DNA of 64,000 bases from NCBI GenBank assembly GCA_000165345.1, contig CM000432.1:192001-256000 (forward strand), given 5' to 3'. This document shows positions 7,597 to 19,043 of the stretch, in pieces. Numbering within the stretch: the first letter of the stretch is position 1; each line of letters opens with the position of its first letter. Below the pieces are notes generated by a model. It searched no databases, had not been told where the DNA came from, and saw only the letters and a list, made by a program, of their open reading frames with translations. The position numbers and the translations under genes were made by a program.

Positions 7597-8187
7597 CTAA
7601 AATGAGTCCTTAAGATAACTGGAAACACCTTCATGAGTAGCTGACATTCCTTTTTGGCCCTTCTTCCAGTTTGCTGGGCAAACTTCACCATAGGTTTCAG
7701 TGAATTGAAGTGCATCAATAACACGTAGAGTTTCTTCGACTGATCTTCCTAATGGTAAGTCATAGATTACTTCAGAACGAACAACACCCTCCTTGTCAAT
7801 GATGAATAAACCTCTGAGAGCAATACCTTCTTCCTCGAGAAGTACACCATAGTTCTTGCTAATTGAATGAGATGAGTCAGAGATAAGTGGGAAATTGACT
7901 GGTCCAATTCCACCTTGTTCAAGAGGAGTACGTCTCCATGCAGCATGGGAGTATTGAGAATCAACTGAGACAGCGAGGAGCTGTACTCCCAATTTCTCAA
8001 AGTCTTTTTGTGCTTGATTGAATGCTAAGATTTCAGATGGACATACAAATGTGAAGTTTAATGGATAGAAGAACAATACAACGTATTTTCCTCTGTAGTC
8101 GCTCAAGGAGACCTTCTTGAATGAACCATCTGCCATAACAGCTTCAGCAGTAAAGTTTGGTGCTAACTTTCTAACTAATGTACTCAT
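7597..8187 (-). CDS. typical 2-Cys peroxiredoxin (thioredoxin peroxidase)
   Basis: 196 aa. It carries the peroxidatic Cys motif FFYPLNFTFVCPSEI and the resolving Cys context GEVCPANW. It is full length with an ATG start. Confidence 0.92.
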   Translation of the reverse strand: MSTLVRKLAPNFTAEAVMADGSFKKVSLSDYRGKYVVLFFYPLNFTFVCPSEILAFNQAQKDFEKLGVQLLAVSVDSQYSHAAWRRTPLEQGGIGPVNFPLISDSSHSISKNYGVLLEEEGIALRGLFIIDKEGVVRSEVIYDLPLGRSVEETLRVIDALQFTETYGEVCPANWKKGQKGMSATHEGVSSYLKDSF

Positions 8188-9536: not shown

Positions 9537-11603
9537 ATGTTATTTCACCTAGGAGCGCTAACATGGTTGAGTTTATTTGCTCATTATGCAAAGCTTCAAA
9601 TGGATTCTATTGATTTTTCAGGAACCTCAGACCAAGATGAGTGCAGTATCCAATGTAATTTAAATTTTTTCCCATATTGTGCAACAAATGGGGTAACTTA
9701 TATAAATGAATGTTTTTATATGAGAGCAAGATGTTTAGATCCAAAAATTCAATTACAAAAGATGCCAGGAATACCATGTGGATTACTTGGATCAATGGAT
9801 GCAACTAAATATACTGGATGTGAGAAAGGGTGTGCTCCAGTAGAGTTTCCATATTGTGGTACAAATGGTGTAACTTATATAAATAACTGTGCATTGGATA
9901 TAGCTATGTGCGAAGATGCAAACATTCAATTGGCAAGATTACCAGGTTTAGCGTGTGGAAGTGAGACTAAATTTTCTATTTCAACTTCAGAATGCGAAGG
10001 ATTATGTTCAGAGCATTATATTCCCTATTGTGGTTCTGATGGAAAAACATATATTAATTATTGTGAATTTAGAAAGTCTAGATGCAGAGATCCAACTCTA
10101 TCAATTGTTGGTTTTCCAGGATTACCTTGTGAGAGTCAGATTTACGATGAAAAAGTTATTATTCAACAGACAAGAAAAATTGAATGTTTAAGAAAAAATA
10201 AATGTTCATCTATATTAATACCAATATGTGGATCAGATGGTGTAACTTATAGGAACCCATGCGAATTTAAGAGAGCAAGATGTAGAGATCCTAGTTTAAG
10301 AAGAGCAAATATACTTTTACCTTGTGGGAGTAAAATATCTGATGGTGTTGAAAATATTATTGATAAAATGCCAAATACTACATCAACTGGAATTCATAAA
10401 TCATGTTGGTTTAAATGTACTAAAGTATGGGAATATCCATTATGTGGTTCAGATGGTATAACTTATAGTAGTTATTGTGAAATGAGAAATGCTTTATGTT
10501 TGGATCCAGATTTAAGACTTGTCAAAATTCCTGGAGTGAAATGTTCAGGTGATTTTCAATTTACTAATCCAATAGAAATTGATAAATGCAGGGATGATTG
10601 CCCATTTGGTAAGACATTATCATATATATGTGGAAGTGATAATAAGACATATTTTAGTTACTGTGAATTTAGTAATGAAATGTGTAGAAATCCTGAATTA
10701 TATTTAGCAAAGCCTATGGGATTTCCATGTAGAGAGGAAGATAGAAATAAAGATCTGGAATCTGTAGCTAAAGAGTATCAGACTATGGATGAGGTATATT
10801 TTGGCATTACAAATTTCAAATCTAATGCTTTTGAGGAAAAGATTGAAGAATCAAGAATGACAGAAAATTCTGTTATTGTAATAAATAATGCAAATTTACA
10901 AGAAGAAATCAGAAATGGAATAGAAAAGAATTCTGGTTTATTATTTGATAATAAAATTTACAATAGTAATAATTATAACCATATTGAGACTAATAATACA
11001 TTACATAAGAATATTACTAATATGCTTGGCTATGAGGTTCATATGTTAAATCATGGATTAGAGACAACTAATTGTGAATTTGATTGTAGTCATTCACCTA
11101 GAATGGCTCATTGTGGCAGTAATATGTTAACATATCCTTCAGGATGTGCATTTCATAGAGATCAATGTAGAAATCCAAAATTACAGCTTGTTGCAGAGCC
11201 AGGAATACCATGCTCAGAATTGGGAAATTTTAGGATTACTCAAGAAAAGATGCAGGAATGTTTGAGGGATTGTACTCATTCTCAGAAAGTTTATCATTGT
11301 TTGAATACTGGAGAAACTATATATAGTTATTGTGAATTTCTTTATCTACAATGTTTAATTTCTGGATATAGAATAATTGGACATGCGGGAATTCCATGTG
11401 ATGATATAAGTGAATACAGGTATTATAAGAAATCATCAAATGAGAGTTCTATTGATAATAGTAAAACAAATGATTTTAATGTTGGTGGTGGTGATTATCT
11501 TGAAAATAAAGAACGTGAATTTCAGAAGAAGATCAGAGAAATGCTTAATGAGATACCTTCTTATGAATATACTGGTTTAAATAGAATCAATCACAATTAT
11601 TAG
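9537..11603 (+). CDS. secreted multi-Kazal-domain serine protease inhibitor-like protein (about 8 Kazal repeats)
   Basis: 688 aa with an N-terminal signal peptide (MLFHLGALTWLSLFAHYAKL). There are eight repeats of the Kazal signature C-x(n)-PxCG[ST][DN]G.TY.N.C-x(n)-C, for example PYCGTNGVTYINNC, PICGSDGVTYRNPC and PLCGSDGITYSSYC. Confidence 0.8.
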   Translation: MLFHLGALTWLSLFAHYAKLQMDSIDFSGTSDQDECSIQCNLNFFPYCATNGVTYINECFYMRARCLDPKIQLQKMPGIPCGLLGSMDATKYTGCEKGCAPVEFPYCGTNGVTYINNCALDIAMCEDANIQLARLPGLACGSETKFSISTSECEGLCSEHYIPYCGSDGKTYINYCEFRKSRCRDPTLSIVGFPGLPCESQIYDEKVIIQQTRKIECLRKNKCSSILIPICGSDGVTYRNPCEFKRARCRDPSLRRANILLPCGSKISDGVENIIDKMPNTTSTGIHKSCWFKCTKVWEYPLCGSDGITYSSYCEMRNALCLDPDLRLVKIPGVKCSGDFQFTNPIEIDKCRDDCPFGKTLSYICGSDNKTYFSYCEFSNEMCRNPELYLAKPMGFPCREEDRNKDLESVAKEYQTMDEVYFGITNFKSNAFEEKIEESRMTENSVIVINNANLQEEIRNGIEKNSGLLFDNKIYNSNNYNHIETNNTLHKNITNMLGYEVHMLNHGLETTNCEFDCSHSPRMAHCGSNMLTYPSGCAFHRDQCRNPKLQLVAEPGIPCSELGNFRITQEKMQECLRDCTHSQKVYHCLNTGETIYSYCEFLYLQCLISGYRIIGHAGIPCDDISEYRYYKKSSNESSIDNSKTNDFNVGGGDYLENKEREFQKKIREMLNEIPSYEYTGLNRINHNY

Positions 11604-14723: not shown

Positions 14724-19043
<4,320 letters not shown>

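Follow-up and report, generated by a model that had tools for sequence, protein, structure and literature searches.

An eight-module non-classical Kazal protein of Cryptosporidium parvum (cgd4_750): candidate inhibitory heads and strongly conserved putative reactive-site loops

The gene and what its re-examination adds

Re-evaluating an open reading frame (ORF) at positions 9537–11603 of the forward strand of a 64,000-nucleotide stretch of the Cryptosporidium parvum genome (assembly GCA_000165345.1, contig CM000432.1, positions 192,001 to 256,000; hereafter the window), we find that it is the already annotated gene cgd4_750, and we consider it somewhat probable, judging from its sequence, that some of its Kazal modules act as canonical serine protease inhibitors, most likely of host gut enzymes. 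What the re-examination adds to the public record is a domain-by-domain assessment, in which three modules (D1, D5 and D6) alone resemble conventional inhibitory heads, the eighth (D8) appears as a diverged Kazal domain that Pfam misses, and the putative reactive sites carry the tightest constraint across the genus. These additions narrow the choice of target for first biochemical work.

The ORF runs uninterrupted for 688 codons in an AT-rich surrounding genome (~28% G+C), and the ORF list together with matches to EAK87660.1 and QOY41965.1 establishes it as the complete, single-exon coding sequence of cgd4_750 (688 amino acids, aa, plus stop). GenBank holds the identical protein under both of these accessions, from C. 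parvum Iowa II (EAK87660.1) and as CPATCC_001557 (QOY41965.1), and labels the former ‘extracellular protein with a signal peptide and 8 kazal repeats’. The gene lies at ~201 kb on chromosome 4 (CP044419.1), in a locus whose order is pyruvate:NADP+ oxidoreductase ... NAP, peroxiredoxin, Rpp14, Kazal, prefoldin, ASF1, a 1439-aa protein and topoisomerase II, and its identifier was set from the supplements of Tandel 2019 (PMC6877471), where it fills the slot between cgd4_740 and cgd4_760. An earlier note, made from the letters of the window, had pointed to a secreted inhibitor-like protein here; the gene and its eight-Kazal architecture have been public since the first genome release, and a scan that recovers them is not a discovery at that level.

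We could practically dismiss the idea that this is a chance ORF or a mis-annotated, functionless pseudogene, which is already refuted by the conservation and selection data. A merely moderate expression level might be read in its favour, but the ORF is intact in nine species with conserved synteny, its ratio of non-synonymous to synonymous change (omega) is ~0.12, its Pfam match has E=4e-43, and its transcripts are detected. The ORF is real far beyond chance, and ordinary. A ciliate-type genetic code or a missed intron was also considered and rejected, the ORF being the annotated protein in several independent assemblies.

Eight non-classical Kazal modules

All 48 cysteines of cgd4_750, whose mature product has a computed mass of ~76 kDa and a pI of ~5.5, fall in eight blocks of six with the spacing C-x3(5)-C-x7(8,9)-C-x10-C-x6-C-x13/14-C. 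Run on the whole protein, Pfam (Kazal families PF00050/PF07648) returns Kazal_2 at E=4e-43 and Kazal_1 at E=3e-32, with seven stretches passing, and sequence matches in the PDB include agrin, follistatin, ovomucoid, the Anemonia elastase inhibitor (AEI), rhodniin, SPINK1 and similar proteins. Scored singly against the Kazal_2 gathering threshold of 22.8 bits, the first seven domains, all on the forward strand, reach 26.9 bits for D1 (aa 36–81, 9642–9779; spacing 3,7,10,6,14), 32.3 for D2 (aa 95–140, 9819–9956), 34.9 for D3 (aa 153–198, 9993–10130; PDB matches AEI 1Y1B and ovomucoid), 41.3 for D4 (aa 217–263, 10185–10325; the best-scoring domain, with Kazal_1 at 39.4 bits), 38.8 for D5 (aa 290–336, 10404–10544; the most conserved domain), 32.6 for D6 (aa 351–398, 10587–10730; with a nine-residue loop) and 26.9 for D7 (aa 513–559, 11073–11213; Kazal_1 at 15.8 bits, below threshold). 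The core motif C3-G-(S/T)-(D/N)-G-x-T-Y-x-N-x-C4 is complete in D2–D4, has Ala for Gly in D1 and Ser in place of Asn in D5 and D6, and is degraded to CGSNMLTY in D7, where it reads CGSNMLTYPSGC.

The eighth block, D8 (aa 575–621, 11259–11399, forward strand), finds no Kazal match in Pfam even at E<=10; its core reads CLNTGETIYSYC, with CGSDG replaced by CLNTGE and the CGSDG-TY motif lost. It aligns end to end with a hidden Markov model (HMM) built from D1–D7 of nine species, at 33–42 bits, and its six Cys line up throughout an alignment of 56 domain copies, where no column is invariant apart from these six and that of the Thr in the T-Y motif. An AlphaFold model of D8, whose input alignment contained D1–D7, has a mean predicted local distance difference test (pLDDT) score of 93.5, and the best 50 matches in a fold search of the PDB with this model are all Kazal folds (ovomucoid third domain, FSTL3/follistatin, rhodniin); it fits rhodniin at 1.6 Å over 45 columns, and match probabilities rise to 0.96 with weak E-values of 0.2–1.6, as expected for a 54-residue query. 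Judged by alignment and predicted fold, D8 is a degenerate eighth Kazal copy, and an unrelated Cys-rich module is rejected on the HMM match, the Cys register, the model and the Kazal-only fold matches.

With D8 included, the eight tandem Kazal domains claimed in the earlier note hold up, as does their division into six plus two: the Cys-free linker that parts them lies at 10731–11072, near the 10740–11030 first proposed. The note had also named a Cys spacing incompatible with the Kazal 1-5/2-4/3-6 pattern as grounds for abandoning the assignment; the spacing is compatible with that pattern and, as far as spacing goes, of the same type as that of AEI (1Y1B). Within the array we observed two sub-types, D1–D4 (9642–10325) with a seven-residue Cys2–Cys3 loop and Asn at P15', and D5–D8 (10404–11399) with loops of eight to nine residues and Ser at P15', which suggests two ancestral module types, each duplicated.

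Candidate reactive sites and a proposed mechanism

Taking P1 as the second residue after Cys2, as in OMTKY3 (Leu18) and SPINK1 (Lys18), where PDB entry titles confirm residue 18 as P1, and assuming for the lengthened loops of D5–D8 that the insertion lies C-terminal to P3', we extracted the putative P1 of every domain, as the earlier note had proposed. The loops read C-N-L-N-F-F-P-Y-C in D1 (P1 Leu42, invariant in nine species), C-A-P-V-E-F-P-Y-C in D2 (Pro101, invariant across species), C-S-E-H-Y-I-P-Y-C in D3 (Glu159, likewise invariant), C-S-S-I-L-I-P-I-C in D4 (Ser225; S/R/N across species), C-T-K-V-W-E-Y-P-L-C in D5 (Lys296, invariant), C-P-F-G-K-T-L-S-Y-I-C in D6 (Phe357; Phe/Tyr), C-S-H-S-P-R-M-A-H-C in D7 (His519; H/N/Y/S/E) and C-T-H-S-Q-K-V-Y-H-C in D8 (His581; H/R/N). 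The variable P1 regions that had been predicted are thus found between domains, but between species they hardly change, with an omega of ~0.03–0.04 at the contact positions. The broad-spectrum activity predicted alongside them has in its favour eight modules with differing P1 residues; as a property of the protein it is conjectural, and just D1, D5 and D6 have a P1 typical of good inhibitors.

From these loops, D1 (Leu), D5 (Lys) and D6 (Phe/Tyr) are plausible as credible inhibitory heads. In the OMTKY3 P1 series of Lu et al. 1997, Pro, Glu, Ser and His, the residues found in D2, D3, D4 and D7/D8, are reportedly poor at P1. Variants of OMTKY3 with Pro18, Glu18 and His18 have been crystallised in complex with SGPB, according to PDB entry titles, and a poor P1 therefore need not mean no binding. 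An Asn at P15' (Asn33 of OMTKY3) hydrogen-bonds and stiffens the reactive loop; this Asn is present in D1–D4 and in AEI, SPINK1 and OMTKY3, and is replaced by Ser in D5–D8.

The mechanism that we propose is that of a soluble ~76 kDa protein with a signal-like N-terminus and no membrane anchor, whose eight non-classical Kazal modules would be arranged 6+2 and of which at least some would inhibit serine proteases by the standard mechanism (canonical, substrate-like, tight but reversible), with the loop after Cys2 presented to the protease active site. D5, whose P2-P1 Thr-Lys is SPINK1-like, would act against trypsin-like enzymes, and D1 (P1 Leu) and D6 (P1 Phe/Tyr) against chymotrypsin-, elastase- or subtilisin-like enzymes, while D2, D3, D4, D7 and D8 would more likely be weak, specialised, or non-inhibitory spacer or binding modules. 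The likeliest setting would be the lumen and brush border of the gut, the site at which pancreatic proteases come into contact with excysted sporozoites and merozoites.

Comparison with known inhibitors and with matrix proteins

Comparing cgd4_750 with characterised Kazal proteins, we found its closest counterpart in domain subtype to be AEI of Anemonia sulcata (PDB 1Y1B, MEROPS family I1; sequence verified against the PDB copy), which is described as a functional non-classical Kazal inhibitor (Hemmi et al. 2005, as cited in PMC12147184). The classical spacings are 7,7,10,2,17 in OMTKY3 and 6,7,10,2,17 in SPINK1, and AEI has 3,7,10,6,13 against 3,7,10,6,14 in cgd4_750; the two share the short Cys1–Cys2 gap and a Cys5 placed one helical turn further along, and AEI shares with D1–D4 the core P-x-C-G-S-D-G-x-T-Y-x-N-x-C. 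They differ in that AEI, with proven activity against elastase, consists of one 48-residue domain whose P1 is Met, whereas cgd4_750 comprises eight modules, of which half have lengthened loops and Ser at P15', and is a putative inhibitor. For SPINK1, whose sequence was also verified, the likeness lies in the loop of D5: C-T-K-I-Y-D-P-V-C and C-T-K-V-W-E-(Y)-P-L-C both have Thr at P2, Lys at P1, a beta-branched P1', an aromatic P2' and an acidic P3', but SPINK1 has classical spacing and P15' Asn, and D5 is non-classical with one extra loop residue and P15' Ser.

Among apicomplexans, the precedent to which the earlier note had pointed is documented: TgPI-1 of Toxoplasma is a four-Kazal inhibitor of trypsin, chymotrypsin and elastase that protects against gut proteases, and coccidian inhibitors such as this one have the same short Cys1–Cys2 gap (PMC12147184). 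The note's picture of an apicomplexan secreted multi-Kazal protein likewise fits a C. parvum product with a signal-like N-terminus and eight modules. Like TgPI-1 (and TgPI-2 and Neospora NcPI-S, of dense granules), cgd4_750 would be a secreted, multi-domain, non-classical Kazal protein in which P1 differs between domains; TgPI-1, however, is built from four domains, where cgd4_750 has eight together with its 114-residue linker and conserved tail, and for TgPI-1 there is biochemical and genetic evidence where cgd4_750 is known from its sequence and transcripts. The best 120 matches of cgd4_750 include none from Toxoplasma or Neospora, and with the differing architecture this leaves orthology with TgPI-1 unsupported. 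The nearest relative from outside Cryptosporidium is an 860-aa transcriptome (TSA) protein, P0005, with about a dozen modules of the same spacing, followed by multi-Kazal proteins of crustaceans, oomycetes and molluscs. By analogy, the mechanism would be closest to that of multi-headed Kazal inhibitors such as TgPI-1 and ovomucoid, and the domain subtype is non-classical Kazal like AEI.

The highest-scoring solved relatives are the FS modules of agrin and follistatin, which have in common with cgd4_750 a C4-x6-C5 spacing, an arrangement in long tandem arrays and TYSS/TYSN motifs, and this likeness brings in another explanation, one that we regard as unlikely: that cgd4_750 is a non-inhibitory extracellular scaffold or adhesion protein whose Kazal modules would be used for binding as rigid units rich in disulfides, in the manner of agrin, follistatin and SPARC, with ligands such as host glycosaminoglycans (via the basic D4) or other secretory or wall proteins of the parasite. 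Agrin and follistatin are not known as protease inhibitors. Agrin is the best PDB sequence match (E=2.6e-28), alongside follistatin, and the P15' Ser and TYSSxC motifs of D5–D8 resemble follistatin modules, but the many tandem repeats of agrin inflate its score, and AEI, a true inhibitor, has the same spacing. Agrin and follistatin are metazoan signalling or matrix proteins in which the Kazal-like part is joined by an N-terminal sub-domain of EGF-like (FOLN) type and by further matrix domains; the accessory domains of agrin, follistatin and SPARC (FOLN/EGF-like, laminin G, EC) are absent from cgd4_750, in which Pfam finds Kazal alone, and because of this we place it outside that family. Also in favour of a scaffold are the conservation of D8 despite loss of the inhibitor motif, the long flexible linker and conserved C-terminal motif, the net charge of +7 and pI of 9.6 of D4, and the links with oocyst or female stages seen for further Kazal proteins in C. 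parvum (cgd8_4830; a 12-Kazal oocyst glycoprotein, PMC8486141). Set against these are the absence of cgd4_750 from the list of genes that differ between female and asexual stages, so that an oocyst-wall role is not indicated, and the fact that the strongest constraint falls exactly on the canonical protease-contact set. As an observation in its own right, D4 (10185–10325) is strongly basic in an otherwise acidic mature protein, which recalls the heparin-binding FS1 module of follistatin (1LR7, among the PDB matches).

Conservation, selection and expression

Orthologues in the genus share the length and architecture of cgd4_750, and synteny is conserved throughout the nine species. Identity to the C. 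parvum protein (alignment A1) is 98% in both C. hominis and C. tyzzeri, 95% in C. meleagridis, 90% in the chipmunk genotype, 85% in C. ubiquitum, 84% in C. canis, 74% in C. bovis and 54% in C. muris, and for D5 alone the figure is still 91% in the gastric C. muris. To evaluate selection we applied the Nei-Gojobori method to codon alignments and relied on C. meleagridis and C. ubiquitum, synonymous sites being saturated against C. canis, C. bovis and C. muris; the predicted contact set comprised P6–P4, P2–P3', P14', P15' and P18'.

Overall omega is 0.12 against both species, and its partition over the protein is graded: 0.043 (C. meleagridis) and 0.033 (C. ubiquitum) for the contact set, 0.100 and 0.094 for the remaining scaffold, 0.19 and 0.13 for the short inter-domain linkers, 0.21 and 0.17 for the long linker, and 0.44 and 0.30 for the C-terminal tail. 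Counts are small (2 non-synonymous and 9 synonymous changes in the contact class against C. meleagridis), and the direction is the same in every usable comparison but that with C. hominis, which is nearly uninformative, its contact class holding one change of each kind. The contact positions are the most constrained non-Cys sites, and the loops are therefore functional rather than decaying; they differ between domains yet are almost frozen between species. Such strong constraint on the contact residues argues, from sequence comparison, for a specific conserved partner of each loop rather than an arms race.

Transcripts of cgd4_750 were found in three triplicates at log2 counts per million (CPM) of ~7.9, 6.1 and 7.0, which we assign to sporozoites and to 24 h and 48 h cultures in an order taken from the sample list rather than from the table header (PMC6877471 supplements). 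The same supplements list cgd4_750 among sporozoite-enriched genes, and it is absent from their asexual-versus-female differential list.

Canonical inhibition of host gut enzymes is favoured by the Kazal matches, the AEI-type spacing, the SPINK1-like loop of D5, the conserved P1 residues of D1, D5 and D6, the constraint on the contact positions, the hydrophobic N-terminus of a protein lacking a C-terminal anchor, the somewhat higher transcript level in sporozoites and the precedent of TgPI-1. Several other observations weigh against it. In overall sequence the protein matches best to agrin and follistatin, whose Kazal-like modules are non-inhibitory, and none of the eight domains carries the full canonical signature, since D1–D4 keep P15' Asn but three of them have a poor P1 (Pro, Glu, Ser), and D5–D8 combine P15' Ser with lengthened loops, as in some follistatin modules. 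Expression is only moderate, in a table whose column order was itself deduced, and the searchable literature yielded no study specific to cgd4_750 (enzymology, localisation or knockout). Reactive-site hypervariability, a usual trait of Kazal inhibitors exposed to diverse enemy proteases, is absent here; contact-residue hypervariability is the pattern reportedly described by Laskowski et al. 1987 for avian ovomucoid third domains. Host enzymes as targets can accommodate this last point in one way, as loops under strong conservation would suit enzymes with active sites that themselves vary little across vertebrate hosts.

The same conservation is the main ground for a different assignment of targets, to which we give a low probability, namely that cgd4_750 regulates the parasite's own secreted serine proteases (for example subtilisin-like maturases of the secretory pathway, egress or invasion) rather than shielding it from host enzymes, every conserved loop being paired with one conserved parasite protease. 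Kazal inhibitors commonly inhibit subtilisins, which counts for this possibility. The P1 residues of D1, D2, D3 and D5 do not vary between intestinal species and the gastric C. muris, in different hosts; purifying selection on contacts fits endogenous targets at least as well as host targets; conserved P1 Pro and Glu are hard to explain by pancreatic enzymes; and cgd4_750 is expressed at all stages sampled. Yet the analysis identified no parasite target, P1 Lys, Leu and Phe make up the classic trypsin/chymotrypsin/elastase set, and the documented coccidian precedent, TgPI-1, acts on host enzymes (PMC12147184). A wider form of the idea, which we hold only tentatively and rate as doubtful, is that cgd4_750 is a multi-headed regulator rather than an arms-race shield, with each conserved and partly unorthodox loop matched to a parasite protease or to a non-protease ligand.

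N-terminus, linker and C-terminal tail

The first 21 residues (MLFHLGALTWLSLFAHYAKLQ; 9537–9599, forward strand) form a hydrophobic, signal-peptide-like segment with the highest hydropathy of the protein, which the public sources annotate as a signal peptide, although its n-region lacks a basic residue and its -3/-1 pattern is not textbook; a hydropathy scan of the protein showed no second hydrophobic stretch, and neither a transmembrane helix nor a glycosylphosphatidylinositol-type C-terminus. A full-length AlphaFold model built from the nine-sequence alignment has a mean pLDDT of 41 and was used for its secondary-structure pattern only; it places a low-confidence helix at residues 2–23. We also observed that residues 1–21 hardly differ among eight species, a degree of conservation far above what is usual for signal peptides, with 1 non-synonymous change to 10–15 synonymous ones against C. 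ubiquitum, C. canis and C. bovis, and on this pattern the segment may do more than target the protein to the endoplasmic reticulum. The annotated C. muris orthologue starts at an internal Met (L009 position 3001) and so has no such N-terminus; the 21 in-frame codons upstream (L009:2938–3000) encode MILHLGHLTWISLFLYYAKKQ, which is homologous to the C. parvum N-terminus, and the public C. muris model probably omits its signal peptide.

The linker between D6 and D7 (aa 399–512, 10731–11072, forward strand) is 114 residues long, Cys-free and indel-rich between species (alignment A1), and in the full-length model it has a pLDDT of ~22–27 and almost no secondary structure. Its description as Q/N-rich in the earlier note has to be corrected, as it contains 17.5% N, 14% E and 1.8% Q and is thus Asn/Glu-rich. 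Pfam finds no domain in the linker or the tail, only noise. The C-terminal tail (67 residues, aa 622–688, 11400–11600, forward strand) has no hydrophobic anchor. At its end (11490–11600, aa ~652–688), amid fast-evolving sequence, stands a conserved motif, EREFQKKIREMLNEIPSYEYTGLxRINHNY, which is shared by the species from C. parvum to C. bovis and is missing in the C. muris orthologue; the low-confidence model predicts a helix there at residues 654–671, and the motif may serve in sorting or partner binding.

Other Kazal genes and the neighbourhood of cgd4_750

At least four further C. parvum genes (cgd4_3550, cgd5_3380, cgd8_3550 and cgd8_4830) are annotated as encoding a signal peptide plus one or more Kazal domains; they lie at different loci from cgd4_750, differ from it in expression and are likened to it by annotation only. 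Among them, cgd8_4830 is almost silent in asexual stages (log2 CPM ~1.5) and very high in females (~11.4), which suggests a role in the oocyst or macrogamont. A 12-Kazal glycoprotein has been reported in C. parvum oocysts (PMC8486141), and PMC12147184 credits C. parvum with ‘a Kazal’, a statement that understates the family in this species.

Elsewhere in the window, a 1439-aa ORF at 14724–19043 (forward strand) corresponds to cgd4_770, ‘Uncharacterized protein’, and contains at 16911–18193 ~53 tandem copies of a 24-nucleotide unit (GAGGAAGAGAGACTTAGAAAAGAA) encoding the octapeptide EEERLRKE, together with a 51-nucleotide repeat at 15930–16054. It is because of these repeats that the region from 14 to 18 kb shows extreme purine and GC skew, and the differing length of the ORF between assemblies (1423 vs 1439 aa) suggests copy-number variation of the repeat. 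Positions 1–311 hold the 3' end of a pyruvate:NADP+ oxidoreductase gene (POR/PFOR plus flavodoxin domains), which we take to be cgd4_690. The peroxiredoxin gene cgd4_740, at 7597–8187 on the reverse strand, is highly expressed (log2 CPM ~10; Tandel 2019, PMC6877471).

Implications

If the tentative regulator interpretation were true, cgd4_750 would be an apicomplexan case in which Kazal modules serve endogenous control or adhesion, and this would explain why the contact residues are the slowest-evolving part of the protein. As for inhibition of host gut enzymes, the assignment that we consider somewhat probable, Cryptosporidium is a major cause of childhood diarrhoea with extracellular stages in the protease-rich gut lumen, where a protease inhibitor that is secreted and has several heads could plausibly aid survival and act as an antigen.

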